Shown: positions 454 to 51,240, numbered from the stretch's first letter. The stretch is 64,000 nucleotides of DNA from Escherichia coli (GCF_044647545.1 NZ_CP172818.1), one strand, 5' to 3'. Notes: generated by a model from the sequence alone, not told the origin. Numbers and translations: made by a program.

Positions 454-729
454 ATGAAAGTAAACTTAATGCTTTTTAGCTTATTTTTATTGGTCTCTAT
501 TATGGCATGCAATGTTTTTGCATTTTCTATTTCTGGTGGTGGTAGTGAGGCGAGCTATAAAGAGACAGAAAAAACGTCAGCGATGACGACAACTCACTCT
601 ACAAAATTTCAGCCATCACAGGCGATTTTGTTAAAAATGAGAGAAGATGCGCCACCATTAAACCTCACAGAAGAAATTCCGCCCCCTTTTCCGACAAAGG
701 CGAATTATCTTATCCATCCTGTGCGATAG
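454..729 (+). CDS. ypdI: small predicted lipoprotein (91 aa)
   Basis: ORF track 91 aa; N-terminal hydrophobic signal with Cys (SIMACNVFA); synteny with yfdY and lpxP. Confidence 0.75.
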   Translation: MKVNLMLFSLFLLVSIMACNVFAFSISGGGSEASYKETEKTSAMTTTHSTKFQPSQAILLKMREDAPPLNLTEEIPPPFPTKANYLIHPVR

Positions 730-805
730 CGTCTGTCACACGGCAGGTGAACAATCATGTCTGATGCTGATGTGAACACCTGCCCAAATGATCCATCCTG
801 AACTA

Positions 806-1048
806 CTACCGCCTGCCATACCCCACCATAAAGCGAATCATCAAGCCACAAGCCGGGGCAAGAAACATAAATATCCCCGTCACTAGTTCATTACCGCCAG
901 TTAACCACATGGTGAAGTAGTAAATGAGTGCAGCGAGGATCACCATGCCGAAGAAAGAAGAGACCGCCGAGACCACGTTCAGTACCTGACCGATGTATCC
1001 GCTTACGCAGACAATACACAGGGCGAGAAACATCCATAAATAAATCAT
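806..1048 (-). CDS. yfdY: small inner-membrane protein (80 aa, DUF2545-like)
   Basis: ORF track 80 aa, two to three hydrophobic helices; recognised as YfdY; synteny. Confidence 0.75.
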   Translation of the reverse strand: MIYLWMFLALCIVCVSGYIGQVLNVVSAVSSFFGMVILAALIYYFTMWLTGGNELVTGIFMFLAPACGLMIRFMVGYGRR

Positions 1049-1400
1049 AGCTCAACCTCCTGCCGCGCTAAAAAACCTGTAACTTCAGTCACTTTAATAG
1101 TAAGACAATCCTTAACCTCTGGCAATTTTTGCTAAGCATCAATGAAAACAGCACGTTAAATGCAACGCTATTGCGTGCGGAAAACTTTTTACTTTGCACG
1201 ATTAATAATCAGTAGCTGAAAGCAGTCAGCCAGTGATAAAGTAGAGCCACCGCATTCATGCTCCTCGTGGTTATGTCCTGACTAGTCTTTACACTCTTTA
1301 CAGGAACCATTGTCGTACATGATGGCCCAACCAATTGAGTGTACCGCTGTCGACATGGAATCTTCTGCGATACAACAATTCGTATCTACAGAAGGTAACT

Positions 1401-2321
1401 ATGTTTCCACAATGCAAATTTTCCCGCGAGTTTCTGCATCCTCGCTACTGGCTCACGTGGTTTGGGCTTGGTGTACTCTGGCTTTGGGTACAGCTTCCTT
1501 ATCCTGTTCTCTGCTTTCTCGGCACGCGTATCGGCACAATGGCGCGACCATTCCTGAAACGTCGTGAATCTATCGCCCGTAAAAACCTGGAACTTTGCTT
1601 CCCACAGCATTCTGCGGAAGAACGCGAGAAGATGATTGCCGAAAACTTTCGTTCACTCGGCATGGCGCTGGTAGAAACCGGCATGGCATGGTTCTGGCCC
1701 GACAGTCGCGTACGTAAATGGTTTGATGTTGAAGGGTTGGATAACCTTAAACGCGCACAAATGCAAAATCGCGGCGTAATGGTTGTCGGCGTCCATTTTA
1801 TGTCGCTGGAACTGGGCGGCCGCGTGATGGGACTGTGCCAACCAATGATGGCCACCTATCGTCCACATAATAATCAGCTGATGGAATGGGTGCAGACCCG
1901 TGGTCGCATGCGCTCTAACAAAGCGATGATCGGCAGAAATAATCTGCGCGGCATTGTCGGTGCACTGAAGAAAGGTGAAGCGGTATGGTTTGCTCCCGAT
2001 CAGGATTATGGTCGTAAAGGCAGCTCCTTCGCGCCGTTCTTTGCGGTGGAAAATGTCGCCACAACCAATGGCACCTATGTCCTCTCTCGTCTCTCTGGCG
2101 CAGCCATGTTGACCGTAACGATGGTAAGAAAAGCGGATTACAGCGGATATCGTTTGTACATCACCCCAGAGATGGAAGGCTACCCGGCAGATGAAAATCA
2201 AGCCGCTGCCTATATGAACAAGATTATCGAAAAAGAGATCATGCGCGCACCGGAGCAGTACCTCTGGATCCACCGTCGCTTTAAAACGCGCCCGGTGGGA
2301 GAATCGTCGCTATACATTTAA
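1401..2321 (+). CDS. lpxP: lipid A biosynthesis palmitoleoyl acyltransferase (cold-induced LpxL paralog)
   Basis: ORF track frame 1335-2321; internal ATG at 1401 preceded by GAAGG gives 306 aa beginning MFPQCKFSREFLHPRYW, typical of the LpxL/LpxP family. Confidence 0.9.
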   Translation: MFPQCKFSREFLHPRYWLTWFGLGVLWLWVQLPYPVLCFLGTRIGTMARPFLKRRESIARKNLELCFPQHSAEEREKMIAENFRSLGMALVETGMAWFWPDSRVRKWFDVEGLDNLKRAQMQNRGVMVVGVHFMSLELGGRVMGLCQPMMATYRPHNNQLMEWVQTRGRMRSNKAMIGRNNLRGIVGALKKGEAVWFAPDQDYGRKGSSFAPFFAVENVATTNGTYVLSRLSGAAMLTVTMVRKADYSGYRLYITPEMEGYPADENQAAAYMNKIIEKEIMRAPEQYLWIHRRFKTRPVGESSLYI

Positions 2322-2676
2322 CAAACTGCTCTTACTCTTTCCCTCCTCAAATCAGCCATAATAACCTCATGGTTTTTATGGCTTTTTTCTTAAGGTTTTT
2401 TCCTTCGCTGAATCTCTAATTATTACCGTCAGAAATTAAACTGTCGCCGATATGAGACACCTGTAAGTTACTAAAAGTAAATAAGAAAATGCCTCTTGTC
2501 TCGTTTCAGTTTTAGGCGTACATTAGCGCCGTCTGGAGCAGTTTAGCTCAGAATTCTGGGGTGATGCCCACGGTAAAATACAGGACTTTTAAGGTCGTTT
2601 TGCCCGGTGTCAACTCACTGTATCAGGTGTAATGAAGTCATTCAGGCGTAACAGTAATTACGCGGAGAGATGTAAA

Positions 2677-2748
2677 GTGAAATATTTCTTTATGGGCATT
2701 TCTTTTATGGTCATCGTTTGGGCCGGTACTTTTGCCCTGATGATCTAA
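2677..2748 (+). CDS. ypdK: small membrane protein (23 aa), GTG start
   Basis: GTG at 2677 preceded by GGAGAG (2664-2669); translation (M)KYFFMGISFMVIVWAGTFALMI then TAA; followed by a hairpin terminator. Confidence 0.55.
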   Translation: MKYFFMGISFMVIVWAGTFALMI

Positions 2749-2764
2749 AAGCAAACTGTGCAAT

Positions 2765-2795
2765 GAAAAACAGGAGCCATCTGGCTCCTGTTTGC
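2765..2795. terminator. bidirectional intrinsic terminator between ypdK and alaC
   Basis: Hairpin caggagcc-atct-ggctcctg at 2771-2790, flanked by an A-run upstream and a T-rich tract downstream. Confidence 0.5.
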
Positions 2796-2812
2796 ATTTC
2801 TGTCGATGGTGT

Positions 2813-4051
2813 TTATTCCGCGTTTTCGTGAATATGTTTGCTGCTGGCGGGTAGTAAACCGTCGGCACGGAACATCGCTTTAATTCCACGAATCGCCTGG
2901 CGAATACGATCGCGGTTTTCAATCAGTGCAAAGCGAACATGGGTGTCGCCGTAGTCGCCAAAGCCAATCCCTGGAGAGACACAGACCTTCGCTTCGTTAA
3001 GCATTTTCTTGGCAAATTCCAGTGAACCCATGGCCGCATACGGTTCCGGGATTTTCGCCCAGACATACATCGAAGCCTTCGGCATTTCGACCATCCAGCC
3101 CGCTTCATGCAGCCCTTTTACCAGTACATCACGGCGGCGTTTGTACTGTTCGGCAATGTCGCGCACGCACTGTTGATCGCCCTCCAGCGCCGCAATCGCT
3201 GCCACCTGCAACGGCGTAAAGGTGCCGTAATCGTGATAGCTTTTAATACGTGCCAACGCGCTGACCAGCGTTTTGTTACCGACCATAAAGCCGATACGCC
3301 AGCCCGCCATGTTGTAGCTTTTCGACAGCGTAAAGAACTCGACTGCCACATCGCGTGCACCTGGCACCTGCATGATTGACGGCGCTTTCCAGCCATCGTA
3401 GACGATGTCCGCATAGGCCAGGTCATGGACCACCAGCACATCGTAGCGTTTCGCCAGCGCCACTACTTTTTCGAAGAACTCCAGCTCCACGCATTGCGCG
3501 GTTGGGTTCGACGGGAAGCCGAGGATCATCATCTTCGGTTTTGGATAACTTTCGCGAATGGCGCGTTCCAGTTCGTTGAAGAAATCGACACCTTCCACCA
3601 GCGGCACTGAGCGTACCTGCGCCCCGGCAATCACCGCGCCGTAAATATGAATCGGGTAGCTTGGATTAGGCACCAGTACAGTGTCACCATGATCCAGCGT
3701 CGCCAGCATCAGATGCGCCAGGCCCTCTTTCGAACCAATAGTGACGATGGCTTCTGATTCCGGGTCGATTTCAACGTCGTAGCGATCCTGATACCAGCGG
3801 GAAATGGCGCGACGTAGCCGCGGAATGCCGCGTGAAGTGGAGTAACCATGCGTGTCCGGGCGCTGGGCCACCGTACATAATTTTTCGACGATATGCGGCG
3901 GAGTCGCACCGTCCGGGTTACCCATACTGAAATCGATAATATCTTCGCCGCGCCGACGCGCAGCCATTTTCAGTTCAGCGGTAATGTTAAAAACGTAGGG
4001 CGGGAGACGATCAATACGCGTAAAGCGACGTTCAGGGCGAGTGTCAGCCAT
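2813..4051 (-). CDS. alaC: glutamate-pyruvate aminotransferase (class I PLP aminotransferase)
   Basis: 412 aa ORF; PLP-lysine region [10 protein letters not shown]; N-terminus [21 protein letters not shown] matches AlaC (YfdZ). Confidence 0.92.
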
Positions 4052-4427
4052 AATGTCCTCAGATTAACGTTAGCGCCCGGACCGTCCGAGCGACGCTGCC
4101 ACGATGGTGGCTGTTTTGAAAATAGCCTGATTAATTTCTGTCTGTCCAGCGTTTTAGAACATTTTTATCAATGGCTTTAAATGAGGAACTCCACTTCAAA
4201 AACAGGAAATTTATCTGCGCTAACAAGAAAATTACCACTCATTTTATTAACATTATAATTTCAATAAATTTACCAAGCAGATGTGCATTATCAAGAGATG
4301 CATTGCTAATACACCATTTATCCTTCAATCCCCTTTTAAAATTGTGGTTTTTCCTCAAAAACGGCCTGCTGGTCATCAGCCTTCAGGTTACCTATCATAG
4401 AGGTTTAATCCTTATTCAGAGTCACCC

Positions 4428-6125
4428 GTGCACGAAATATTCAACATGCTGCTGGCGGTCTTCGATCGGGCAGCGTTAATGCTTATCTGCCTGTTTTTTC
4501 TCATCCGTATCCGCCTGTTTCGCGAACTGTTGCACAAGTCGGCACACTCACCGAAAGAGCTGCTCGCCGTTACCGCCATTTTCTCGCTGTTCGCCCTGTT
4601 CAGCACCTGGTCCGGAGTTCCCGTAGAAGGCTCGCTGGTGAACGTACGTATTATCGCGGTGATGTCAGGCGGGATTCTGTTTGGCCCGTGGGTGGGCATC
4701 ATTACCGGCGTGATTGCGGGTATTCATCGTTATTTAATTGACATCGGCGGCGTGACGGCGATCCCCTGCTTTATCACCAGCATTCTGGCGGGTTGTATAT
4801 CGGGCTGGATCAACCTGAAAATCCCCAAAGCACAGCGCTGGCGCGTCGGTATTCTCGGCGGCATGTTATGTGAAACGTTGACCATGATTCTGGTGATTGT
4901 CTGGGCACCAACTACCGCGTTGGGGATCGATATCGTCTCTAAAATCGGCATTCCAATGATCCTCGGTAGCGTCTGTATCGGCTTTATTGTGCTGCTGGTG
5001 CAAAGCGTTGAGGGCGAAAAAGAGGCCAGCGCCGCGCGGCAGGCCAAGCTGGCGCTGGATATCGCCAACAAAACGCTGCCGCTGTTTCGCCATGTCAATA
5101 GCGAGTCATTACGCAAGGTCTGCGAAATTATCCGCGATGACATTCACGCCGATGCGGTGGCGATTACAAATACCGATCATGTGCTGGCCTATGTTGGCGT
5201 GGGTGAGCATAACTATCAGAATGGCGATGATTTCATTAGCCCGACTACCCGCCAGGCGATGAATTACGGAAAAATCATCATTAAAAACAATGATGAAGCC
5301 CACCGCACACCAGAGATTCATTCCATGCTGGTGATCCCATTGTGGGAGAAAGGCGTTGTGACCGGAACGCTGAAAATTTACTACTGCCACGCGCATCAGA
5401 TAACCTCGTCATTACAGGAAATGGCGGTCGGTCTGTCACAAATCATCTCCACGCAACTGGAGGTTTCGCGCGCTGAGCAGCTGCGTGAAATGGCAAATAA
5501 GGCAGAGCTTCGCGCCCTGCAAAGCAAAATTAATCCCCATTTCCTGTTTAACGCTTTGAACGCTATTTCATCGTCAATCCGCCTGAATCCGGATACTGCT
5601 CGCCAGCTGATCTTTAATTTGTCGCGCTATCTGCGCTATAACATTGAATTAAAAGATGATGAGCAAATCGATATCAAAAAAGAGCTGTATCAAATTAAAG
5701 ACTATATTGCCATTGAGCAGGCCCGCTTTGGCGACAAGCTGACGGTTATCTATGATATTGATGAAGAGGTGAATTGCTGCATTCCCAGCCTGCTGATCCA
5801 GCCGTTGGTGGAAAACGCCATTGTCCACGGTATCCAGCCTTGCAAAGGTAAAGGCGTTGTCACCATCAGCGTTGCAGAGTGCGGTAATCGGGTACGTATT
5901 GCGGTGCGAGATACCGGGCACGGCATCGATCCAAAGGTGATTGAGCGGGTCGAAGCGAATGAAATGCCGGGCAATAAAATTGGCCTGCTGAATGTCCATC
6001 ATCGCGTGAAGTTATTGTATGGCGAGGGGCTGCATATCCGCCGCCTGGAACCAGGAACGGAAATTGCGTTTTACATTCCTAACCAACGCACCCCAGTCGC
6101 CTCACAGGCTACCTTATTGCTTTGA
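4428..6125 (+). CDS. ypdA: LytS-type sensor histidine kinase of a pyruvate-responsive two-component system
   Basis: 565 aa; GTG start; N-terminal multi-TM 5TMR-LYT-like region, then GAF-like region and His-kinase/HATPase C-terminus. Confidence 0.88.
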
Positions 6126-6139
6126 GCCGGAGTGATATT

Positions 6140-6874
6140 GTGAAAGTCATCATTGTTGAAGACGAATTCCTGGCACAACAGGAACTGAGCTGGCTAATTA
6201 AAGAGCACAGCCAGATGGAGATTGTCGGCACCTTTGACGACGGTCTGGACGTGTTGAAGTTTTTGCAGCATAACCGCGTCGACGCCATTTTTCTGGATAT
6301 CAATATTCCGTCGCTGGATGGTGTGTTGCTGGCACAAAACATCAGCCAGTTCGCCCATAAACCGTTTATTGTGTTTATCACCGCGTGGAAAGAACATGCG
6401 GTAGAAGCGTTTGAACTGGAGGCGTTTGACTACATTCTCAAACCGTATCAGGAGTCACGCATTACCGGGATGCTGCAAAAACTGGAAGCAGCCTGGCAAC
6501 AACAGCAGACCAGCAGTACGCCTGCCGCGACGGTAACGCGTGAGAATGACACCATTAATCTGGTGAAAGATGAGCGAATCATCGTCACGCCCATTAACGA
6601 TATCTATTACGCCGAAGCGCATGAGAAAATGACCTTTGTCTATACGCGGCGTGAATCCTACGTAATGCCGATGAACATTACCGAGTTTTGCAGCAAGCTG
6701 CCGCCGTCGCATTTTTTCCGCTGCCATCGCTCATTTTGTGTCAATCTGAACAAAATCCGCGAGATCGAACCGTGGTTTAATAACACCTATATTCTGCGGC
6801 TGAAAGATCTGGATTTTGAAGTGCCGGTCAGCCGCAGCAAAGTTAAAGAATTCCGCCAGTTAATGCATCTTTAA
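6140..6874 (+). CDS. ypdB: LytTR-family response regulator
   Basis: GTG at 6140 gives 244 aa (M)KVIIVEDEFLAQQ...; receiver domain with conserved Asp (FLDINIP) and C-terminal LytTR DNA-binding domain. Confidence 0.88.
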   Translation: MKVIIVEDEFLAQQELSWLIKEHSQMEIVGTFDDGLDVLKFLQHNRVDAIFLDINIPSLDGVLLAQNISQFAHKPFIVFITAWKEHAVEAFELEAFDYILKPYQESRITGMLQKLEAAWQQQQTSSTPAATVTRENDTINLVKDERIIVTPINDIYYAEAHEKMTFVYTRRESYVMPMNITEFCSKLPPSHFFRCHRSFCVNLNKIREIEPWFNNTYILRLKDLDFEVPVSRSKVKEFRQLMHL

Positions 6875-6886
6875 TCGGGAACTTTC

Positions 6887-7744
6887 ATGAAAGCACCAGG
6901 CTTGCCCGCCGATCAACAATTTTTCGCCGATCTGTTCAGCGGCCTGGTGCTTAACCCGCAACTACTGGGGCGCGTCTGGTTTGCCAGCCAGCCTGCCTCA
7001 TTGCCAGTGGGCAGTTTATGTATTGATTTTCCCCGTCTGGATATCGTGCTACGCGGCGAATACGGCAACCTGCTGGAAGCAAAGCAGCAGCGAATGGTGG
7101 AAGGAGAAATGCTGTTTATTCCGGCGCGCGCGGCTAATTTACCGGTCAACAACAAACCGGTGATGCTGTTAAGCCTGGTGTTCGCACCGACCTGGCTTGG
7201 GTTATCGTTTTACGATAGCCGCACCACGTCGTTGTTGCATCCTGCCCGCCAGATCCAGCTTCCCAGCCTGCAACGCGGTGAAGGTGAAGCGATGCTTACC
7301 GCCCTCACCCATCTTAGCCGTTCGCCGCTGGAGCAGAATATCATTCAGCCACTGGTGTTAAGTTTGCTGCATCTTTGCCGTAACGTGGTGAATATGCCGC
7401 CGGGCAATTCGCAGCCGCGCGGCGATTTTCTCTATCACAGCATTTGTAACTGGGTTCAGGATAATTATGCCCAGCCGCTCACCCGCGAGAGCGTGGCGCA
7501 GTTTTTTAATATCACGCCCAATCATCTGTCAAAACTGTTTGCTCAGCATGGAACAATGCGTTTTATCGAGTATGTTCGCTGGGTACGAATGGCAAAGGCA
7601 AGGATGATTTTGCAGAAATATCATCTGTCGATTCATGATGTGGCACAGCGTTGCGGTTTTCCGGACAGCGACTATTTTTGTCGCGTTTTCCGGCGTCAGT
7701 TTGGCCTGACGCCGGGAGAGTACAGCGCCCGTTTTCAGGGCTAA
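6887..7744 (+). CDS. ypdC: AraC-family transcriptional regulator
   Basis: 285 aa; C-terminal AraC-type HTH (CGFPDSDYFCRVFRRQFGLTPGEY). Confidence 0.85.
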   Translation: MKAPGLPADQQFFADLFSGLVLNPQLLGRVWFASQPASLPVGSLCIDFPRLDIVLRGEYGNLLEAKQQRMVEGEMLFIPARAANLPVNNKPVMLLSLVFAPTWLGLSFYDSRTTSLLHPARQIQLPSLQRGEGEAMLTALTHLSRSPLEQNIIQPLVLSLLHLCRNVVNMPPGNSQPRGDFLYHSICNWVQDNYAQPLTRESVAQFFNITPNHLSKLFAQHGTMRFIEYVRWVRMAKARMILQKYHLSIHDVAQRCGFPDSDYFCRVFRRQFGLTPGEYSARFQG

Positions 7745-7746
7745 CG

Positions 7747-10242
7747 TCAGAAGGTTAATTCCGTTTCCAGCAGCGTCAGGATGCTTTGCGCATCTTGCGC
7801 GGCAAACAACGACTGGCGGAAGTTTTTATTCACCAGTTTGCGCGCCAGCTGCGAGAAGACTTTCACATGATTCATCCCTTCGTTAGCGCCCAGTGTCAGC
7901 ATGATCACCAGTTCGACTTCGCCCATTTCTGACTGCCAGTCAACCGGTTTCACCAGCCGGGCAATGCTGATACTGGAATGACGGATCCACTGAGATTTGG
8001 TGTGCGGGATCGCTACGCCAAAACCAACGCCGGTGGTAACAATCTCTTCCCGCTGCCAGACATCTTCTTCCAGCTCAAACGGATGTTCAGTACGCCCGTT
8101 AACACCAAGGTTGCCGCACAGGAACTGGATCGCCTGCTCTTTATTACTAAAGTCATGATCAACAAAGATATTCTCCAGCGCCAGCAGTGGGCGAACGTCT
8201 TCTTCCGGCGTAAAGGCGGTGAGTAACGCTTCAATCTCCTGCGCGCTGCGGCATTCACATGCCTGACGCGCCAGTTCCCGACACGCCTCGCTATCCAGTT
8301 GACGAAGCTGGCTTTTCACCGCCGGAATGCGCGGGCTACTCATACTCAGCTCGTCTAGGCCCAGCCCAAGCAGTAGCGGAAGATAACGGCTTTCACCGCC
8401 CAGTTCACCGCAAATACCTACCCATTTACCCCGCTGATGCGCAGTGGTAACAATCTGCTGCAACATGCGCAGGAACGATGGCGTAATCGGGTTATACAGC
8501 GGCGATACGCGCGGGTTATTACGATCGACCGCATACAGATACTGGGTCATATCGTTGGAGCCGATACTGAAGAAATCGACCTCATCGCAGAAGTGATCGA
8601 TGATGTAGCACACCGACGGCACTTCCACCATGATACCCAGCGTAATCGTCTCTGCATGACGCAGGCCATCGCGCTTAAGCTCAACGATCGCTTTTTGGAT
8701 CTCGCCCTTCACCCATAAGATCTGATCGAGGCTGTGAACCATCGGGATCATCAACTGGGCGTTGCCGAAACTGGCGGCGCGCAAAATGGCCCGCAGTTGA
8801 GTGCGAAACAGGCCAGCAAATTCCGGGTAAATACGTACCGCGCGATAGCCGAGGAACGGGTTCTCTTCCTGGGGAATATTCAGATAAGGAATGCTTTTAT
8901 CGCCGCCGATGTCCATCGTGCGGAAGATAATCGGCTTGTCGCCCGCCGCCAGTAGCACCTGCTGGTAGGCTTCAAATTGCTCCTGCTCGTCCGGCGCGCT
9001 GTCGCGATCCATATAGAGCATTTCGGTACGGAACAGCCCGACACCTTCCGCGCCGTTGGCAAACGCGCCTGGCGCTTCCAGAGCGGTGCCGATATTCGCC
9101 GCAATATCAATACGCTTGTTATCACGGGAATAGGCCAGCTGCGCGGCGGCCTGCGCCTGTTGTTTTTGGCGTTTATCCGCCAGCGTCTGCGCGACCTGAT
9201 AATAACCGCTCACCGCGTCATTCGGGTTAATCGCCAGCACGCCGCACTGGGCGTCAAGCACTGCCGGTTGCCCGGCATAGCGCGCGATCGCATCCAGCGG
9301 CAAGCCACTCAGTACCGGGATCGCCGAGGCACGGGCCAGAATCAGGGTATGCGAGGTGCGCCCGGTTTTCTCCAGAATCATGCCCGCAAGATTTTTTAAA
9401 TCGAGGCTCAAAAACTGGCTTGGGGTTAAATCTTCAGCCACCAGAATAGTCGGTTTTTCCAGCACCAGATTGTTGCGCGGTTTCAGTTCCGGCCAGGTGA
9501 TATGCAGCAACTGTTCGCTGATATCGCGAATGTCGCTGACCCGCTCGCGCAGATAATCACTGGCAGAAGCAGATAGTTTGGCGCAAACCTGCTCCATATT
9601 GCTGATGATCGCTGCACCCAGCCCCTGATGTTGTTCTGTCATCAGGCGACGGATATTGCCTGCAAATTCATCATCCTGAATCAGCGACAAATGGGCGCTG
9701 AGAATGGTTTTGCTTTCGCCGTCACGCTCGCGCAATTGCTGGTTCAGTTGCTCGGCAAGCGTTGCCAGGCTGTGCTCCAGCCGGGTGGAATCTTGCGCAC
9801 TGGCGGGGATCGCCCGGTAACTGTCGAGGCTGTCGCTCTGTAACAGGGTCAGCGTACCCACGCCAACGCCGCTTGCCAGCACGTTGCCGTACAGTAAATC
9901 CGGGTTCAGGCGGCTTAATGAACGCGGCAGCGGATGCGCCGTCAGTTCTGCCTGCGTTGGCTGGACGCTGTCGCTGTCGATAAAGCGCACCTGGATGTAC
10001 TCTTCCAGCACGCGCCGCGCCTGCTCTTCATCGCTGCCGCTAATGTTCAGGCTGCAACTGTCATTAAATAGGGTGCCGGTGCCAATCAGCGCCAGCGAGC
10101 TTTTGGCATCAGCCCTGGCGTTCTGGCGATGATTAATAAAGGTGACTTCACTTTGCCACTGGCTGCACTGCTCTTTAAGTTCCCACGCCGGACGAGCATG
10201 CAGACCGTTTGGCAAAGGACAGAGAAATTGAATCGTTAACAT
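7747..10242 (-). CDS. fryA: PTS multiphosphoryl transfer protein (HPr-EI-EIIA fusion) of the cryptic fructose-like PTS
   Basis: 831 aa; N-terminal HPr-like region, central enzyme I PEP-utilising domain, C-terminal EIIA-Fru/Ntr-type domain. Confidence 0.9.
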   Translation of the reverse strand: MLTIQFLCPLPNGLHARPAWELKEQCSQWQSEVTFINHRQNARADAKSSLALIGTGTLFNDSCSLNISGSDEEQARRVLEEYIQVRFIDSDSVQPTQAELTAHPLPRSLSRLNPDLLYGNVLASGVGVGTLTLLQSDSLDSYRAIPASAQDSTRLEHSLATLAEQLNQQLRERDGESKTILSAHLSLIQDDEFAGNIRRLMTEQHQGLGAAIISNMEQVCAKLSASASDYLRERVSDIRDISEQLLHITWPELKPRNNLVLEKPTILVAEDLTPSQFLSLDLKNLAGMILEKTGRTSHTLILARASAIPVLSGLPLDAIARYAGQPAVLDAQCGVLAINPNDAVSGYYQVAQTLADKRQKQQAQAAAQLAYSRDNKRIDIAANIGTALEAPGAFANGAEGVGLFRTEMLYMDRDSAPDEQEQFEAYQQVLLAAGDKPIIFRTMDIGGDKSIPYLNIPQEENPFLGYRAVRIYPEFAGLFRTQLRAILRAASFGNAQLMIPMVHSLDQILWVKGEIQKAIVELKRDGLRHAETITLGIMVEVPSVCYIIDHFCDEVDFFSIGSNDMTQYLYAVDRNNPRVSPLYNPITPSFLRMLQQIVTTAHQRGKWVGICGELGGESRYLPLLLGLGLDELSMSSPRIPAVKSQLRQLDSEACRELARQACECRSAQEIEALLTAFTPEEDVRPLLALENIFVDHDFSNKEQAIQFLCGNLGVNGRTEHPFELEEDVWQREEIVTTGVGFGVAIPHTKSQWIRHSSISIARLVKPVDWQSEMGEVELVIMLTLGANEGMNHVKVFSQLARKLVNKNFRQSLFAAQDAQSILTLLETELTF

Positions 10243-10266
10243 AACCGCTCCGGGTTAATCAGGAGA

Positions 10267-11304
10267 TCATCTGAAATCCGTCAGTTGAACAACCGTCTCA
10301 CGGGTAAGACGTTGAATAAGGGCAGATAAAAGCTGCTGCATCTGCAAAATGTCGCGGCAGTCGGCAATCGATGCGGCGCAATGTCCGTGGCGGGTTGCTG
10401 GCCCCATCACCACTGTGGGTACGCCAGTGCCGGTTAAATGCACCGCCCCGCCGTCCGTTCCGCCGTTGCTGAACATATCGGCCTGCAACGGCACGCCAAT
10501 TTCTGCCGCCACGGTTTCAATCCACGCGGTAAGTTTTGGCGGCGCAATCAGCGACTTGTCGCTTAACACCAGCATCGGCCCGTTACCAATCTGGCGATGG
10601 TTAGCCGCGCCATAATCAAAGTTTTTCGCCCAGCAGGCGGTATCAAGCACAATGGCGACATCCGGCGACACCGCGCGGGTGGCAGTTTGCCCGCCGCGTA
10701 ATCCCACCTCTTCGCTGGAACTTGCCACCAGCCACACTTCCGCAGGCAGTTCGGCGTCGTGCAGCTCACGCAGTAACGTCACCAGCAGATAGCAACCGAG
10801 GCGGTCATCAAAGGCTTTCCCCATTACCCGCTGGTGAGGGAGAACCTGAAAAGTGGTATCAAAGGTGACGCGATCGCCTGGACGAATTCCCGCCTGCATC
10901 ACTTCGTCACACGAGCGCGCGCCAATGTCCACGCGCATGGTGCTGACGTCATTCCCCTGCCGGTCGCCGTCAAGCAGGCCTGGAATTTTGCACTCTTCAC
11001 GGGTAGTGATACGCACCGACTGAAGCTGGCGGGCAGCCATGCGTACATTGCCAACCGGCAACACATCGATCGCCCCTTCGCGGGAGATGCTGCGCACCAT
11101 AAATCCCACTTCGTCCATATGCGCACAGATCATCACCTTCGGACCTGTCGATTCATTGAGGCGGATCAGCACCGATCCCAGGCCGTCAAATCGCACTTCT
11201 TTTTGCAGGCGATCCGCTTCTTCCAGCAGGATCTGCCGTACTTCCTGTTCCGAGGAGGCGATCGCATCTGCCTCGCTCAACGCTTTTAATAACGATAAAT
11301 CCAT
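10267..11304 (-). CDS. ypdE: M42-family aminopeptidase
   Basis: 345 aa; M42 (FrvX/YpdE-like) peptidase fold; embedded in the fry operon. Confidence 0.85.
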
Positions 11305-12389
11305 TATGCCTCTCCCGTGAGCAACACTGTTTTCGGCATGGCGTAGAGCACTTCTGCGCCTTGCGGGGTGACCAGCACAACATCTTCGATGCGCACGCCC
11401 CCTTGCCCTGGCAAATAAATCCCCGGCTCCACGGTCAGTAACATGCCTGGCTGTAGCGTCGTGGTGTCCCGCGGTGAAAAACGCGGATCTTCATGGACTT
11501 CAATGCCGATAGCATGACCGGTGTTATGACCGAAATAGTCGCCAAATCCAGCCTCGGTAATCACCCGGCGCGCGGCGTCGTCAACCTGCTGGCAGCGCAC
11601 GCCGGGGCGAATCGCGGAGATTGCCGCCAGCTGTGCCTGCAAAACAATCTGATAGACGTCAAACAGCGGGTGAGATTCGGCGCTCACCCCTTCGCCATTC
11701 ACCAGCAAGGTGCGTGTCATATCAGAGCAGTAGCCCTGATAGAGCGCACCGAAATCGAGAGTGACAAACTCGCCCGCTGCAACAATCTTGTCGCTGGCTT
11801 TGCCGTGCGGCAGCGCCCCACGCCAGCCGCTGGCGACAATGGTATCGAAAGAGGCTTTTTCTGCGCCCTGCTGGCGCATAAACCACTCCAGTTCAGCGGC
11901 TATCTCGCGCTCGCTCATCCCCGCCTGAATAAAGCGGCGAATATGCTCAGCACCGCGATCGGCAATCCCACAGGCGAGGCGGATTTTCTCCACCTCCTCT
12001 GGCGTTTTGATTTGCCGCAGCACATCCGGCGTGGCGCTAACCAGTTTCGCATTGAGTTCAGACTGCCAGCGGTGCGCGGTTTCCCAACTCACCTGCTGGC
12101 CCTCAAAACCGAGCGTTTGCAACTGCTCATCGGCAATGATTTGCCTGGCGATGGTGGTCAGCGTGTGCGTCGCATCAAGCAAATGCAGTTGGTAGCCTTG
12201 CGTGCGGGCTTCTACATCTACGTAATAGCGCGAGTCCACCAGAATGTGCGCACTTTCACGGCTAATCAGCACATAGCCTGATCCGGTGGAGATCCCCAGA
12301 TGCGGCTGTTTGTTCTGCCGTGAGGAGAGAAGCACCGCATCCAGTTGTTGCGCCTTAAGCCAGTCGCGCAGCGAGGCAAGTAATGTCAT
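11304..12389 (-). CDS. ypdF: M24-family Xaa-Pro aminopeptidase
   Basis: 361 aa; creatinase/prolidase N-terminal region plus M24 metal-binding C-terminus ([13 protein letters not shown]); stop overlaps the ypdE start. Confidence 0.85.
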
Positions 12390-12403
12390 CAGGATTGTCC
12401 TTC

Positions 12404-13651
12404 TTACAGGCTATCGATTAACAATTTGCCTTTGCGGAACATCATCAGACGCAGGAACACCACCATCAGCGCAGTTATGACTGCCCCCAGCGCGATCCCC
12501 GCCATGTAGACGCCGAGGTTAGTGACCAGCGGCCATGCCCAGATAGCGGACTCCGGGAACCATTGCACTGCGCCCAGCCAGACTGCAGCGGTTGAGCCGA
12601 CAATCGCGCCAACCATATAGGACGGAATGGCGGTGATGGGACTTTCCAGTGCAAACGGAATCGCACCTTCACTGATCCCCATAAACGCCAGGAACATGGC
12701 GGTTTTACCCTGCGGATAAAGCTGAGCACTGAACAGACGTTTGCCGGTTAAACGGCGGTCGATAATGGTCGCCAGACCCAGACCAATCGGCGGAATAACA
12801 ATAGCGATGGAACGCGCGGTAACCGGTAATACGTGGTCAGTGGTAAAGCTGAAGGCAACGAAACCAGCTGCTTTGTTGATCGGGCCACCAAGGTCGATTG
12901 CTGTCGCCGCGGCGATCCCCATCGCGTACATCAGCGCGCCCTTCTCACCTGCGGCAGTCAGCACGGTACGGATACCGCCGTTGATCCAGCCGCCAAAGGG
13001 GGTGATGACGTAGTACATCGCCAGCATGACAAAAATGGCGGAAAGAATCGGTAGCAAAAATGTGGTTTTGAACGCTAACAGGAAATCCGGTAACTGGATT
13101 TTCTGGTTCATCCACTTCACAAGGTAACCGGCAACGATAGATATAATCAGGGCACCAATGAAGGTGGACGGTACCGGCGAAGAGGTCGCCCATTGCATAG
13201 TGCTGGGATCGAAGTTCAGCAGTTGCGTCGGCTGGGTAGACATCAACCCGCCGATAAAACCAGCCGGGAACGCCAGTTTGCCACCGATAGAGTTCGCCAC
13301 AAATGCAGCAAACATCGGAATGGCAAAACCAAACAACACGCCGCCGAAGGACTGCGACAACCAGGCAAATTTCAGTAAGGAGAGGTCGAAACCGGAGAAT
13401 TTCCCGCTATTAAGAGCATCCATGATGCCGATATCAGCAGGAATTTTAAGCCAGCTATAAGCAATCAGCTGGCTGAAAGCGAGGATCACACCGCCCATAA
13501 TTAAGGTCGGCACCATGCGTGAAATCCCTGACATCACATGCTGCGGGAGTTCACCCCAGAAGCTGCTTTTAGAGGCCTGCGGATTCTTAACTGCCGCTGC
13601 CGCACCGGATGCGCCAGGCACAACGGTTGCACTGCGTTTTTTAATGGCCAT
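12404..13651 (-). CDS. fryC: PTS fructose-like EIIC permease
   Basis: 415 aa polytopic membrane protein of the PTS EIIC-Fru family. Confidence 0.88.
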
Positions 13652-13672
13652 AACAATTATCCCTGTCGAATA

Positions 13673-13999
13673 TTACTGTTGTTCAGAGGCAATCATCTCT
13701 TCGATTTCTTTGATGATGCCCGCAGCGTTTTTAATTGCGTCCTGCAAAGTGATTTCATAAACGTCGCGTGATTCGAAACGTTCGTTATCTTCCGGGGTAA
13801 CCGCCACGGAGTGGATGATGATGGTCGCTTCGGCGATATCCTGCGCGGTCAGGCGATTCTGGATACCGTCCGCGCCCTGAGTTTCAATTTTCACTTCATA
13901 GCCTGCTTCCACCGCCGCTTCTTCCAGCGCCTGGGCTGCCATAAAGGTGTGAGCCAGACCCATCGGGCAGGCACATAAAGCAATCAGTTTCTTACTCAT
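13673..13999 (-). CDS. fryB: PTS fructose-like EIIB component
   Basis: Internal ATG at 13997-13999 gives 108 aa MSKKLIALCACPMGLAHTFMAA; the CxxG phospho-Cys motif is typical of EIIB-Fru. Confidence 0.85.
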   Translation of the reverse strand: MSKKLIALCACPMGLAHTFMAAQALEEAAVEAGYEVKIETQGADGIQNRLTAQDIAEATIIIHSVAVTPEDNERFESRDVYEITLQDAIKNAAGIIKEIEEMIASEQQ

Positions 14000-14164
14000 C
14001 GTTAATTCCTCGTTCAGTGATAGTTGACGAGTGAAATTATGAACGTGCAAAACAAATCGCCGTTACCAGACAAATAATGCATTTACTGGAGAATTAATCC
14101 CGCTGTACGGAAGTGTGACGCAGGTCGGCCTTGTGAGGTGACACAAAGAAAAATTGAATTAACT

Positions 14165-14203
14165 GTATGATTTAAAAGATTATCGGGAGAGTTATCTCCC
14201 GAT
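14165..14203 (-). terminator. intrinsic terminator downstream of glk
   Basis: Hairpin atcgggaga-gtt-atctcccgat (14182-14203) followed on the minus strand by a T-rich tract. Confidence 0.5.
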
Positions 14204-14217
14204 TTGACAGGAAGGAT

Positions 14218-15183
14218 TTACAGAATGTGACCTAAGGTCTGGCGTAAATGTGCACCGGAACCGAGAAGACCCGGATTGTCATGGACGATGAGATATACCG
14301 GAATATCATGGACATATTCCTTAAAGCGCCCTTTATCTTCAAATGCGGCGCGGAAACCAGAGGCTTTGAAGAACTCAAGGAAGCGCGGCACGATACCACC
14401 CGCAATAAACACGCCGCCAAATGTCCCGAGATTGAGCGCCAGATTGCCGCCAAAACGGCCCATAATGACGCAAAACAGCGACAACGCGCGGCGGCAATCG
14501 GTGCAGCTGTCAGCCAGCGCGCGTTCGGTAATATCTTTTGGCTTGAGATTTTCTGGCAGGCGGTTGTCGGCTTTAACAATTGCGCGATACAAATTCACCA
14601 GCCCAGGGCCAGAAAGCACGCGCTCTGCCGAAACATGACCAATTTCTGCACGCAGTATTTCGAGGATAATGCCCTCTTCTTCACTATTCGGCGCAAAATC
14701 AACGTGACCGCCTTCGCCTGGCAAGCTTACCCAACGCTTATCGACATGGACCAGATGCGCAACCCCTAGCCCCGTTCCGGCACCGTAAACCGCAATAGGC
14801 TTACCTTCTACCGGTTCTGCGCCACCAAACTGAATCAGATGCTCTTTTTTCAGCATCGGGATCGCCATCGATACAGCAGTAAAATCGTTAATAATTTCCA
14901 GATGGCTAAAACCGAGATTCTTTTTCATTTCGGCAATTGAGAACGCCCAGGTATGGTTGGTCATTGCCACCCAGTCACCGGTAATTGGGCAAGCGATGGC
15001 AATACAGCCGTCTTTCACCTCGACCTTATGTTCTTCAAGATAAACGCGAATGACCGCTTCGAGGCTGGGGTAATCAAGCCCTGAATAGGTCTTAGCCTGC
15101 GAGATTTCACCACTGGCAATATCACACAGAGCAAGACGTGCGTTGGTGCCGCCCACATCACCGACTAATGCATACTTTGTCAT
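14218..15183 (-). CDS. glk: glucokinase
   Basis: 321 aa; N-terminus [20 protein letters not shown] (ROK/glucokinase ATP-binding motif). Confidence 0.95.
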
Positions 15184-22435: not shown

Positions 22436-22511
<76 letters not shown>

Positions 22512-22550
22512 ACGAGGCGTTTACGTACCAAATTTGCTGGGTGCAAAATT

Positions 22551-22626
<76 letters not shown>

Positions 22627-25326: not shown

Positions 25327-25402
25327 GGGTGATTAGCTCAGCTGGGAGAGCACCTCCCTTACAAGGAGGGGGTCGGCGGTTCGATCCCGTCATCACCCAC
25401 CA
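25327..25402 (+). tRNA. valU: tRNA-Val (UAC)
   Basis: 76 nt GGGTGATTAGCTCAGCTGGGAGAGCACCTCCCTTACAAGGAGGGGGTCGGCGGTTCGATCCCGTCATCACCCACCA. Confidence 0.95.
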
Positions 25403-25446
25403 ACTACTTTATGTAGTCTCCGCCGTGTAGCAAGAAATTGAGAAGT

Positions 25447-25522
25447 GGGTGATTAGCTCAGCTGGGAGAGCACCTCCCTTACAAGGAGGGGGTCGGCGGT
25501 TCGATCCCGTCATCACCCACCA
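25447..25522 (+). tRNA. valX: tRNA-Val (UAC)
   Basis: Identical 76-nt tRNA-Val sequence. Confidence 0.95.
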
Positions 25523-25568
25523 CTTTCTCGCCAGCTAGATTTCTTGTAAAAATGTGAAGTACCGAAGT

Positions 25569-25644
25569 GGGTGATTAGCTCAGCTGGGAGAGCACCTCCC
25601 TTACAAGGAGGGGGTCGGCGGTTCGATCCCGTCATCACCCACCA
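25569..25644 (+). tRNA. valY: tRNA-Val (UAC)
   Basis: Identical 76-nt tRNA-Val sequence. Confidence 0.95.
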
Positions 25645-25648
25645 CTTC

Positions 25649-25724
25649 GGGTCGTTAGCTCAGTTGGTAGAGCAGTTGACTTTTAATCAATTGGTCGCAG
25701 GTTCGAATCCTGCACGACCCACCA
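25649..25724 (+). tRNA. lysV: tRNA-Lys (UUU)
   Basis: 76 nt GGGTCGTTAGCTCAGTTGGTAGAGCAGTTGACTTTTAATCAATTGGTCGCAGGTTCGAATCCTGCACGACCCACCA. Confidence 0.95.
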
Positions 25725-38017: not shown

Positions 38018-38275
38018 ATGTTCCAGCAAGAAGTTACCATTACCGCTCCGAACGGTCTGCACACCCGCCCTGCTGCCCAGTTTGTAAAAGAAGCTAAGGG
38101 CTTCACTTCTGAAATTACTGTGACTTCCAACGGCAAAAGCGCCAGCGCGAAAAGCCTGTTTAAACTGCAGACTCTGGGCCTGACTCAAGGTACCGTTGTG
38201 ACTATCTCCGCAGAAGGCGAAGACGAGCAGAAAGCGGTTGAACATCTGGTTAAACTGATGGCGGAACTCGAGTAA
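38018..38275 (+). CDS. ptsH: phosphocarrier protein HPr
   Basis: 85 aa [29 protein letters not shown]..., with active-site His15. Confidence 0.97.
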
Positions 38276-38319
38276 TTTCCCGGGTTCTTTTAAAAATCAG
38301 TCACAAGTAAGGTAGGGTT

Positions 38320-40047
38320 ATGATTTCAGGCATTTTAGCATCCCCGGGTATCGCTTTCGGTAAAGCTCTGCTTCTGAAAGAAGACGAAATTGTCATTGAC
38401 CGGAAAAAAATTTCTGCCGACCAGGTTGATCAGGAAGTTGAACGTTTTCTGAGCGGTCGTGCCAAGGCATCAGCCCAGCTGGAAACGATCAAAACGAAAG
38501 CTGGTGAAACGTTCGGTGAAGAAAAAGAAGCCATCTTTGAAGGGCATATTATGCTGCTCGAAGATGAGGAGCTGGAGCAGGAAATCATAGCCCTGATTAA
38601 AGATAAGCACATGACAGCTGACGCAGCTGCTCATGAAGTTATCGAAGGTCAGGCTTCTGCCCTGGAAGAGCTGGATGATGAATACCTGAAAGAACGTGCG
38701 GCTGACGTACGTGATATCGGTAAGCGCCTGCTGCGCAACATCCTGGGCCTGAAGATTATCGACCTGAGCGCCATTCAGGATGAAGTCATTCTGGTTGCCG
38801 CTGACCTGACGCCGTCCGAAACCGCACAGCTGAACCTGAAGAAGGTGCTGGGTTTCATCACCGACGCGGGTGGCCGTACTTCCCACACCTCTATCATGGC
38901 GCGTTCTCTGGAACTGCCTGCTATCGTGGGTACCGGTAGCGTCACCTCTCAGGTGAAAAATGACGACTATCTGATTCTGGATGCCGTAAATAATCAGGTT
39001 TACGTCAATCCAACCAACGAAGTTATTGATAAAATGCGCGCTGTTCAGGAGCAAGTGGCTTCTGAAAAAGCAGAGCTTGCTAAACTGAAAGATCTGCCAG
39101 CTATTACGCTGGACGGTCACCAGGTAGAAGTGTGCGCTAACATTGGTACGGTTCGTGACGTTGAAGGTGCAGAGCGTAACGGCGCTGAAGGCGTTGGTCT
39201 GTATCGTACTGAGTTCCTGTTCATGGACCGCGACGCGCTGCCCACTGAAGAAGAACAGTTTGCTGCTTACAAAGCAGTGGCTGAAGCGTGTGGCTCGCAG
39301 GCGGTTATCGTTCGTACCATGGACATCGGCGGCGACAAAGAGCTGCCATACATGAACTTCCCGAAAGAAGAGAACCCGTTCCTCGGCTGGCGCGCTATCC
39401 GTATCGCAATGGATCGTAAAGAGATCCTGCGCGATCAGCTCCGCGCTATCCTGCGTGCCTCGGCTTTCGGTAAATTGCGCATTATGTTCCCGATGATCAT
39501 CTCTGTTGAAGAAGTGCGTGCACTGCGCAAAGAGATCGAAATCTACAAACAGGAACTGCGCGACGAAGGTAAAGCGTTTGACGAGTCAATTGAAATCGGC
39601 GTAATGGTGGAAACACCGGCTGCCGCAACAATTGCACGTCATTTAGCCAAAGAAGTTGATTTCTTTAGTATCGGCACCAATGATTTAACGCAGTACACTC
39701 TGGCAGTTGACCGTGGTAATGATATGATTTCACACCTTTACCAGCCAATGTCACCGTCCGTGCTGAACTTGATCAAGCAAGTTATTGATGCTTCTCATGC
39801 TGAAGGCAAATGGACTGGCATGTGTGGTGAGCTTGCTGGCGATGAACGTGCTACACTTCTGTTGCTGGGGATGGGTCTGGACGAATTCTCTATGAGCGCC
39901 ATTTCTATCCCGCGCATTAAGAAGATTATCCGTAACACGAACTTCGAAGATGCGAAGGTGTTAGCAGAGCAGGCTCTTGCTCAACCGACAACGGACGAGT
40001 TAATGACGCTGGTTAACAAGTTCATTGAAGAAAAAACAATCTGCTAA
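38320..40047 (+). CDS. ptsI: PTS enzyme I (PEP-protein phosphotransferase)
   Basis: 575 aa; phospho-His region [21 protein letters not shown]. Confidence 0.97.
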
Positions 40048-40087
40048 TCCACGAGATGCGGCCCAATTTACTGCTTAGGAGAAGATC

Positions 40088-40597
40088 ATGGGTTTGTTCG
40101 ATAAACTGAAATCTCTGGTTTCCGACGACAAGAAGGATACCGGAACTATTGAGATCATTGCTCCGCTCTCTGGCGAGATCGTCAATATCGAAGACGTGCC
40201 GGATGTCGTTTTTGCGGAAAAAATCGTTGGTGATGGCATTGCTATCAAACCAACGGGTAACAAAATGGTCGCGCCTGTAGACGGCACCATTGGTAAAATC
40301 TTTGAAACCAACCACGCGTTCTCTATCGAATCTGATAGCGGCGTTGAATTGTTCGTCCACTTCGGTATCGACACCGTTGAACTGAAAGGCGAAGGCTTCA
40401 AGCGTATTGCTGAAGAAGGTCAGCGCGTGAAAGTTGGCGATACCGTGATTGAATTCGATCTGCCGCTGCTGGAAGAGAAAGCCAAGTCTACCCTGACTCC
40501 GGTTGTTATCTCCAACATGGACGAAATCAAAGAACTGATCAAACTGTCCGGTAGCGTAACCGTGGGTGAAACCCCGGTTATCCGCATCAAGAAGTAA
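40088..40597 (+). CDS. crr: glucose-specific PTS EIIA (EIIA-Glc)
   Basis: 169 aa [45 protein letters not shown]... Confidence 0.97.
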
Positions 40598-40610
40598 TTC
40601 TTGCCGCAGT

Positions 40611-48748: not shown

Positions 48749-48911
48749 CTTCCACTCTCCTGGGCTGGCAGCAAAAATTCCGCTTAAGTTCTTATGACGC
48801 TCTTCACACTCTGCGAGTGTAGACTCAATGATTCCTTTAAGTCTGTCAATTCGGGATATATGATTCCATACATCTGCAATTATTTGATCGTAAATAGTAA
48901 GGTCACCACCG

Positions 48912-49808: not shown

Positions 49809-49811
49809 CCC

Positions 49812-51236
<1,425 letters not shown>

Positions 51237-51240
51237 TAAT

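Follow-up and report, generated by a model that had tools for sequence, protein, structure and literature searches.

Two peptidases within the fry phosphotransferase operon of Escherichia coli: comparative evidence on a possible sugar-amino acid or sugar-peptide substrate

The fry operon of Escherichia coli places two peptidase genes among the components of a sugar-importing phosphotransferase system (PTS), and raises the question of what compound such a pairing would serve. We analyze the operon, fryB-fryC-ypdF-ypdE-fryA, in a stretch of 64,000 nucleotides (nt) of an E. coli genome (GCF_044647545.1, NZ_CP172818.1; hereafter the window), and compare it with 72 species loci that carry an orthologue of its permease, FryC. 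Each complete locus joins the transporter either to an M24 peptidase with a second peptidase (M42 or M20) or to a MngB-like GH38 protein. It is quite possible, if short of probable, that the operon imports a small conjugate of a sugar with an amino acid or peptide, and that it forms a single, activator-dependent transcription unit, probably under the control of YpdC. Judged by the gene content of the related loci, our best guess at the substrate is a mannosyl-amino acid or mannosyl-peptide.

Introduction

The fryBC-ypdFE-fryA locus is already known and annotated, and nothing in the object itself is new. A 2009 study of stress regulons lists fryBC-ypdF-ypdE-fryA as an operon and ypdABC as a unit, with mild induction upon Cpx activation. 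A 2017 paper assigns the operon no function and gives its substrate as unknown; it also describes a 48-bp in-frame deletion in fryA that arose in long culture in lysogeny broth (LB) and made its carriers fitter on LB, not on glucose minimal medium. In the uropathogenic E. coli (UPEC) strain UTI89, a ypdE deletion mutant was outcompeted in the mouse bladder, with a competitive index of 0.30, and a paper on M42 enzymes notes that the activity of YpdE has been characterized and that the protein is dodecameric. We found no substrate assignment for the fry operon in the searchable literature, a search outside which the work of Zheng et al. 2005 lies; mentions of ypdF in papers on thioproline and on C. 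elegans are uninformative.

A sequence-only reading of the window, which we follow up here, had described the operon as cryptic, had considered the embedding of peptidases in a PTS operon unusual, and had proposed an Amadori-type fructosyl compound in place of free fructose. It had also stated that the substrate is not established, which is the position of the 2017 paper.

The fry operon and its products

Several complete genomes are 100% identical to the window over bases 7000-15000, and of the 5426 complete E. coli genomes, 5424 contain this region. Gene identities rest on a listing of open reading frames (ORFs), Pfam, NCBIfam and the RefSeq annotation of a 100% identical record. All four are concordant, and they bear out the gene order of the sequence-only reading, with every gene on the minus strand:

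13673-13999, minus strand: fryB, PTS enzyme IIB (EIIB), 108 amino acids, Pfam PTS_IIB (PF02302) and RefSeq; its ATG lies behind a GAGGAA Shine-Dalgarno sequence.
12404-13651, minus strand: fryC, PTS enzyme IIC (EIIC) permease, 415 amino acids, Pfam PTS_EIIC (PF02378).
11304-12389, minus strand: ypdF, M24B Xaa-Pro-type metallopeptidase, 361 amino acids, Creatinase_N (PF01321) and Peptidase_M24 (PF00557).
10267-11304, minus strand: ypdE, M42 aminopeptidase, 345 amino acids, Pfam Peptidase_M42 (PF05343, 286.6 bits).
7747-10242, minus strand: fryA, fused phosphoryl carrier composed of HPr, enzyme I (EI) and a fructose-type enzyme IIA (EIIA), 831 amino acids, five Pfam domains.

The operon is compact. 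Its genes had been described as packed with overlapping stop and start codons; this holds for ypdF/ypdE, which overlap by 1 nt (TAATG), and not for the other three junctions, which are gaps of 21 nt (fryB-fryC), 14 nt (fryC-ypdF) and 24 nt (ypdE-fryA). A consensus scan for terminators inside the operon gave no excess over shuffled expectation.

Both peptidases are recognized at the equivalog level: YpdF scores 815.6 bits against NCBIfam PRK09795 (cut-off 393), and YpdE 679.5 bits against PRK09961 (cut-off 412). A solved structure exists for YpdF (PDB 5cnx, 'Aminopeptidase YpdF'). Inspection of the N-termini revealed no signal peptide in YpdF or YpdE, and both are predicted to be cytoplasmic. 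FryC scores 53 bits against PF02378, for which the cut-off is 30.7. In FryA, an HPr domain (PF00381, residues 6-84) is followed by three EI domains (PF05524, PF00391 and PF02896, residues 119-650) and an EIIA_2 domain (PF00359, residues 687-826), and the phosphorylation-site motifs are intact: GLHARP (HPr His15), GRTSHTLILAR (EI His298), ICGE (EI Cys611) and GVAIPH (EIIA His747). FryB carries the active-site motif CACPMGLAHT and is 67-100% identical over the 72 species loci. Because these motifs are present in FryA and FryB, the phosphorelay between them looks functional. Since FryA duplicates EI, HPr and EIIA in one protein, the fry system would have no need of ptsHI. The window also encodes the general PTS, ptsH-ptsI-crr (38029-40608), and a PTS for N-acetylmuramic acid (MurNAc), murR-murQ-murP (47912-51257).

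Purifying selection acts on the five genes of the operon and on the neighboring regulator gene ypdC (ratios of nonsynonymous to synonymous substitution, dN/dS, of 0.015-0.2 between E. coli and Citrobacter, Salmonella, Enterobacter and Huaxiibacter). The term cryptic can therefore mean only that the inducer is unknown. Constraint is tightest on FryB and FryC (dN/dS 0.03-0.10 for FryC), with a value of about 0.15 for YpdF; the conservation of FryC indicates a working permease. Fused products occur in some E. coli records, namely FryC with YpdF (657-688 amino acids) and FryC with M42 (653 amino acids) in proteins P0081, P0082, P0111 and P0085; they suggest that a frameshift, a lost stop codon or a deletion has altered the operon in a few strains.

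Conserved linkage of the transporter to peptidases, lyases and mannosidases

A search with YpdF of 1.84 billion representative proteins returned a small group of orthologues, followed by a fall to relatives of about 45% identity. For each of the three nearest relatives that we looked up, the gene follows immediately upon PTS IIB-IIC genes:

L007, an enterobacterial metagenome-assembled genome (MAG), YpdF 61% identical: AraC-IIB-IIC-M24-M42-FryA-'aminotransferase'.
L009, YpdF 46% identical: PRD activator-IIA-IIB-IIC-M24-M42-'aminotransferase'.
L011, YpdF 43% identical: M20-PRD activator-IIA-IIB-IIC-M24-'aminotransferase'.

The tie between peptidases and PTS thus extends beyond the enteric bacteria to Firmicutes, in which the nearest non-enteric relatives of YpdF (43-46%) and of YpdE (47%) sit directly behind orthologues of FryB and FryC. 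This supports the view that the peptidases have a functional role in the PTS operon and are not mere passengers. To call such embedding unusual is an overstatement for the M42 family, as all three M42 paralogues of E. coli K-12 lie in PTS operons.

The transporter is conserved well beyond its enzymes: the Firmicutes IIB proteins are 67-75% and the IIC proteins 53-63% identical to those of E. coli, against 27% between E. coli FrvB and FryC. An alignment scan for FryC, in one genome per species over 100,044 species and with two peptide patterns, yielded 72 orthologous loci at a threshold of at least 50% identity. The next matches fall to about 30%, a sharp boundary, and FryC appears to be the founding member of a distinct and highly conserved IIC subfamily. 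We classified the loci by tblastn mapping of reference proteins, leaving outside the classes the 4 of 72 that are cut by contig ends:

Type A, 34 loci, plus one (L047) with a lyase: Enterobacterales; IIB-IIC-M24-M42-FryA, with AraC.
Type B, 10 loci: Ruminococcaceae, Caproiciproducens, Thermoanaerobacterales, Breznakia and Lachnospiraceae; PRD activator-IIA-IIB-IIC-M24-M42-lyase.
Type C, 13 loci: Clostridioides difficile, Clostridium, Pelosinus, Lucifera, Geosporobacter, Caloramator and others; M20-PRD activator-IIA-IIB-IIC-M24-lyase (one without M20).
Type D, 10 loci: Hungatella, Tissierellia, Garciella, Schnuerera and others; IIA-IIB-IIC with a protein of about 880 amino acids and no peptidases.

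The five-gene order of E. coli is kept in 34 enterobacterial species loci, of which 33 have full-length matches to all five proteins, and in 3 more that are truncated by contig ends. Among the Firmicutes, the linkage of M24, M42 or M20, and lyase is kept in all 23 complete peptidase-type loci (with the single type C exception for M20), so that the association spans two phyla. It survives although AraC gives way to a PRD activator, the second peptidase changes from M42 to M20, and one lyase subtype replaces the other. Because the order is kept in two chromosomal contexts and the linkage of PTS to peptidase recurs in Firmicutes, the arrangement is not a matter of chance.

The protein annotated as an aminotransferase in these clusters is a C-S lyase of the PatB family: all three proteins tested score above the cut-off of TIGR04350, and the solved structures closest to it are those of PatB, MalY and cysteine-S-conjugate beta-lyases. 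All peptidase-type Firmicutes loci and one enterobacterial MAG carry this PatB/MalY-family beta-lyase, which is dependent on pyridoxal phosphate (PLP). It comes in two subtypes, one like MalY and one like PatB, and the enterobacterial cluster lyase (L007, 14717-15892) is 65% identical to MalY of E. coli. A second pair of PTS and lyase genes is found in E. coli itself, malX-malY (NC_000913.3; L090, 5356-8130). The M20 protein of type C is a dipeptidase of the Sapep/PepV type, with a secondary match to a Cys-Gly-3M3SH dipeptidase model.

Type D loci replace the peptidases with a protein bearing three GH38 alpha-mannosidase domains. Its best match is the model for MngB, the mannosylglycerate hydrolase, and full-length comparison of these proteins with E. 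coli MngB gives identities of 29-35%. No GH38 hydrolase lies beside a permease in the window; one follows IIC in the 10 loci of this type. In a neighbor-joining tree of the IIC proteins, those linked to GH38 are split between a position next to type B and another next to type C. Since GH38- and peptidase-linked permeases interleave in this manner, the tree suggests that enzyme sets may have been exchanged on a single transporter lineage. The only other family that recurs widely among the neighbors of non-enteric loci is a class I mannose-6-phosphate isomerase (PMI; TIGR00218 above cut-off), which adjoins 8 of about 34 such loci. It is divergent from M20 in the C. difficile group, lies 62 nt past the lyase in three Ruminococcaceae, and stands past the lyase in Geosporobacter. 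By gene order, the C. difficile cluster corresponds to CD2484 (lyase) to CD2491 (pmi).

Several loci hold further genes of their own. In a clostridial MAG (L011/L061, 13777-17229, a single locus), the fry-type cluster is followed by a MurP-like PTS, MupG, a MurQ-like SIS protein and an RpiR regulator, which appear to be a catabolic set of the MurNAc type. In L007 (MAG bin_27, 576-6918), the region 5' of the AraC gene encodes a second M24 protein of 392 amino acids, two M20 proteins, a glyoxalase-fold protein and an Ldh_2 dehydrogenase, and may be an extended peptide-catabolic island. Enterobacterial fry sequence also turns up in records named 'Chryseobacterium sp. 18061' (L037, with Enterobacter-type synteny) and 'Mesorhizobium jarvisii' (L085, a 406-bp contig, 99% identical to E. 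coli), most likely as contaminated or mislabelled public assemblies.

Neighbors inside and outside the module

The sequence-only reading had the operon flanked by an AraC regulator and the YpdAB two-component system. Both are present:

6887-7744, plus strand: ypdC, AraC-family regulator with C-terminal HTH_18/HTH_AraC (Pfam), convergent with fryA; 2 nt separate it from the fryA stop.
6140-6874, plus strand: ypdB, two-component system gene; in E. coli, ypdC starts 12 nt past it.
4428-6125, plus strand: ypdA, two-component system gene, 5' of ypdB.
14182-14203, minus strand: terminator hairpin of glk, a 9-bp stem with a T-rich tail, 14 nt past the glk stop.

Comparison across genomic contexts divides these neighbors. 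In Pseudenterobacter and a related contig, fryB-fryC-ypdF-ypdE-fryA and the convergent ypdC occupy another chromosomal site, between dcuC/rna and flavin reductase/rnk, without ypdAB; the layout of the group of Enterobacter, Lelliottia, Pluralibacter and Superficieibacter matches. In Salmonella enterica subsp. arizonae (L029) and diarizonae (L025), the genes ypdC and alaC are immediate neighbors, without an intervening ypdAB. YpdC accompanies the operon in each of the two enterobacterial contexts as well as in the L007 MAG, and YpdAB does not; on these grounds we count YpdC within the module and leave YpdAB and glk outside it. The proximity of ypdC in the earlier reading thus reflects a conserved association, and that of YpdAB a lineage-specific one; ypdAB looks like an insertion particular to the Escherichia/Citrobacter arrangement.

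Three candidate partners were rejected. YpdAB was set aside as part of the system, as it is not beside the module in most genera, in the L007 MAG or in S. enterica subsp. arizonae and diarizonae. Glk has its own terminator and is adjacent in only one of the two enterobacterial contexts; its terminator marks the upstream limit of the fry transcription unit. AlaC (2813-4051), considered as the counterpart of the cluster 'aminotransferase', is an alanine transaminase (PRK08175, 883 bits) with 20-23% identity to the cluster proteins.

A proposed route for substrate uptake and breakdown

The partners of the transporter, namely lyase, GH38 and PMI, appear to point to a glycosidically or side-chain-linked mannoside, not to a ketoamine. 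In the proposed route, phosphate from phosphoenolpyruvate (PEP) would travel along FryA, by way of the EI histidine and then the HPr and EIIA domains, and on to FryB, and FryC would import and phosphorylate the sugar, most likely an alpha-mannoside and not fructose. In the cytoplasm, YpdF would cut an Xaa-Pro bond and YpdE would take off the remaining N-terminal residues, leaving a phosphoglycosyl amino acid. The PatB/MalY-type beta-lyase that is encoded in the cluster of the Firmicutes relatives and of one enterobacterial MAG would then split this intermediate into sugar phosphate, pyruvate and ammonia; the last step in E. coli may fall to MalY, encoded elsewhere, or to another enzyme. Mannose-6-phosphate isomerase would hand the product to glycolysis. 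It is because the relatives carry a PatB/MalY lyase and PMI that we propose mannose-6-phosphate as the product and a mannoside linked to the side chain of Ser, Thr or Cys as the substrate. Gene content, conservation and linkage are observed; the substrate class, mannose as its sugar, the order of the reactions and the use of MalY in E. coli are what we infer.

In the peptidase-type Firmicutes loci, the regulators are PRD activators with an EIIA domain, so the PTS substrate itself would induce the peptidase and lyase genes. Established behavior of PRD regulators provides the basis for such substrate-driven induction.

The proposal in its full form is a larger claim, and a rather doubtful one: that the FryBC clade constitutes an undescribed PTS route for glycosylated amino acids or short glycopeptides, in which the peptide is stripped and the sugar is then freed by PLP-dependent beta-elimination. 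In this beta-elimination version, example substrates would be O-mannosyl-Ser/Thr-Pro fragments of yeast or host glycoproteins, an assignment that we likewise consider unlikely.

Several observations weigh against the mannosyl-conjugate proposal. The clusters of E. coli and of 34 of the 35 classified enterobacterial loci encode neither lyase nor GH38 nor PMI, and the last steps of the pathway are for this reason borrowed from relatives; even among these, only a minority have PMI alongside. A different aglycone, such as glycerate, may be what the GH38 loci handle, and mannose may therefore not hold for the peptidase-type loci. The IIC tree from which an exchange of enzyme sets is read is a neighbor-joining tree without support values. 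The PatB/MalY family is known for C-S cleavage and is not known to act on an O-glycosyl serine by beta-elimination. Finally, YpdE and YpdF reportedly cleave ordinary, unmodified peptides in vitro, YpdF with Xaa-Pro activity and YpdE with broad specificity.

Alternative explanations

A plain-sugar PTS. The operon could serve the uptake of fructose, another hexose or a polyol, with the peptidases as co-transcribed housekeeping enzymes. The annotation 'PTS fructose transporter' and the family-level homology to fructose IIA, IIB and IIC favor this reading, as does the hydrolysis of ordinary peptides in vitro that Zheng et al. 2005 reportedly found for both enzymes. The homology is that of a fructose-type system (IIA_2, IIB and IIC) and not of the mannose family. 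It does not extend to close similarity to FruA: FryC meets the generic fructose IIC model TIGR01427 only at the border (157.7 bits, cut-off 157.55), scores 98 bits against the FruA equivalog (cut-off 793), and is 27% identical to FruA, a value shared with the IIC domain of MngA and with FrvB. A tblastn search for the 1-phosphofructokinase FruK found nothing in the window and, among the 72 loci, one distant match (L063) more than 5 kb from the cluster, so that none adjoins any of the 72 clusters. The label 'fructose-like' would thus reflect superfamily membership only, and the earlier suggestion that the substrate is not free fructose fits these results. Moreover, a peptidase and lyase linkage that holds across two phyla, despite the swaps within it, is hard to explain without a shared substrate. 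We regard a plain-sugar role as quite unlikely.

A sulfur-linked conjugate. The substrate could instead be a sugar or polyol joined through sulfur to cysteine or to a Cys dipeptide, as an S-glycoside, thioether or thiazolidine, which would be a variant of the mannosyl-conjugate proposal in its linkage; dipeptidase and C-S lyase would then work as they do on Cys-Gly conjugates in skin staphylococci. This would accord with a PatB-family lyase, the members of that family with known structures being cysteine-S-conjugate beta-lyases, and with the M20 partner of Sapep/PepV type and its secondary match to the Cys-Gly-3M3SH dipeptidase. Sugar-cysteine links through sulfur are rare in nature, however, PMI and the GH38 proteins of type D suggest a mannoside with an O-glycosidic bond, and E. 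coli has no lyase in its cluster. The variant is improbable, to about the same degree as a plain sugar.

An Amadori compound. The sequence-only reading had the PTS take up fructosyl-amino acids or glycated peptides, which the peptidases would trim before the ketoamine is broken down. A conserved and real peptidase linkage does make an amino-acid-bearing sugar plausible; some archaeal M42 enzymes deblock N-modified peptides, and the gfr system of Salmonella provides a mannose-family PTS for glucoselysine and fructoselysine. The characterized pathways, however, need a SIS-domain deglycase or a flavin adenine dinucleotide (FAD)-dependent amadoriase. By tblastn, no FrlB deglycase matches in the window or the 72 loci, and no such family recurs among the neighbors; FrlC was also a query, and a FrlD-type kinase gave one weak, distant match in the 72 loci. 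The families that do recur, PLP beta-lyase, GH38 alpha-mannosidase and PMI, do not act on ketoamines. For fructoselysine, E. coli already possesses frlABCDR, and fructose-family PTS normally phosphorylate C1, which is blocked in a fructosamine. An Amadori substrate is thus very unlikely; the comparative evidence supports the general idea of a sugar-amino acid or sugar-peptide substrate, and not this version of it.

A regulatory phosphorelay. That FryA and FryB sense PEP/pyruvate and control the peptidases or YpdC, in the manner of the nitrogen PTS and with little transport by FryC, is highly improbable. In its favor, FryA unites EI, HPr and EIIA in one self-contained chain, as other PTS paralogues do, and in E. 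coli ypdC directly follows the gene for YpdB, of a two-component system known to sense pyruvate; but no protein of the module is more conserved than FryC (50-100% identity across phyla, with the low dN/dS given above), the separate IIA, IIB and IIC with PRD activator in Firmicutes are a standard catabolic PTS layout, and most versions of the module are without ypdAB.

Control of fryB

We footprinted 17 fryB upstream regions from Enterobacterales, drawn from both genomic contexts. Conservation covers the following elements:

14031-14118, minus strand: fryB control region, footprint-conserved.
14109-14118, minus strand: motif TCACACTTCC, about 120 nt 5' of fryB, near-invariant across Enterobacterales in both contexts.
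14082-14090 and 14062-14070, minus strand: direct repeats TCCAGTAAA and TCTGGTAAC, respectively, 20 bp from start to start.
14036-14041, minus strand: -10 element CATAAT, conserved; the proximal repeat lies 20 nt upstream.

The footprinted promoter has no recognizable -35 element, and the proximal repeat abuts the -35 position. A layout of this kind would be typical of AraC-type, activator-dependent promoters. YpdC is the likely activator, and it may bind there. The missing -35 element is also the reason that a consensus scan for promoters and terminators, which gave nothing over shuffled expectation, passed over this promoter. The motif TCACACTTCC was considered as a CRP site and is not convincing as one; no factor is assigned to it.

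The position of the promoter also corrects the start of the operon. The sequence-only reading extended it to 14050, which is the TTG of a mechanically lengthened ORF that runs through the conserved -10 element; the annotated ATG, with its GAGGAA, stands at 13999.

No Rfam family matches in the fry region, and only tRNAs do so elsewhere in the window. These are ordinary features that flank gltX: two tRNA-Ala (22439-22626, minus strand), and three tRNA-Val with one tRNA-Lys (25327-25721, plus strand).

Comparison with known systems

A close parallel for a mannoside is mngR-mngA-mngB of E. coli, which serves 2-O-alpha-mannosyl-D-glycerate: this mannoside of a small acid enters through a fructose-family EII, and an enzyme in the cytoplasm, a GH38 alpha-mannosidase, then frees mannose-6-phosphate. 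An MngB-like GH38 follows IIC directly in ten FryC-orthologue loci. E. coli fry differs in having two peptidases and not a GH38 protein, an AraC regulator and not the GntR-type MngR, and its own EI-HPr-IIA fusion.

The frvABXR and sgcXBCQAER operons of E. coli share with fry an M42 paralogue in an uncharacterized PTS operon (identity to YpdE is 35% for FrvX and 32% for SgcX). They have no M24 partner, however, and other regulators; FrvB has only the low identity to FryC given above, and the permease of sgc is annotated as no more than a putative IIC component.

In malX-malY, as in the lyase-bearing clusters, a PTS permease gene is followed by that of a PatB/MalY-family PLP lyase. MalX is annotated as a fused IIBC, whereas FryB and FryC are separate; malXY includes no peptidases, and fry and malY are unlinked in E. 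coli.

The frlABCDR system of E. coli and gfrABCDEF of Salmonella also catabolize conjugates of sugars and amino acids, the latter through a PTS. Unlike fry, they rely on SIS-domain deglycases with a kinase or a mannose-family PTS, none of which is found at fry or at the 72 loci.

Lastly, the staphylococcal pathway for Cys-Gly conjugates employs a dipeptidase and then a PatB-type beta-lyase, and the type C clusters pair the same M20 and PatB families. Uptake in the staphylococcal pathway is by a peptide transporter and not a PTS, and the conjugated group is a thioalcohol and not a sugar.

Implications

Among the PTS systems of E. coli, FryABC is one of the few without a known substrate, and the comparative pattern makes the question directly testable. 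The module has counterparts in gut anaerobes, and in C. difficile it is expressed during infection: the PTS proteins of the cluster have been detected, CD2487 is reported to be up 14 h after infection of mice, and CD2486-88 with CD2485 are co-regulated, their induction by glucose depending on CcpA. In UPEC, ypdE aids fitness in the bladder. Given these findings in C. difficile and UPEC, the substrate may be a host- or diet-derived glycopeptide that is important for colonization.

The proposed lyase step, if true, would be a new way to remove a sugar from an amino acid. We know of no native substrate for MalY; beta-elimination of such a conjugate, if it takes place, would give this enzyme a physiological role.

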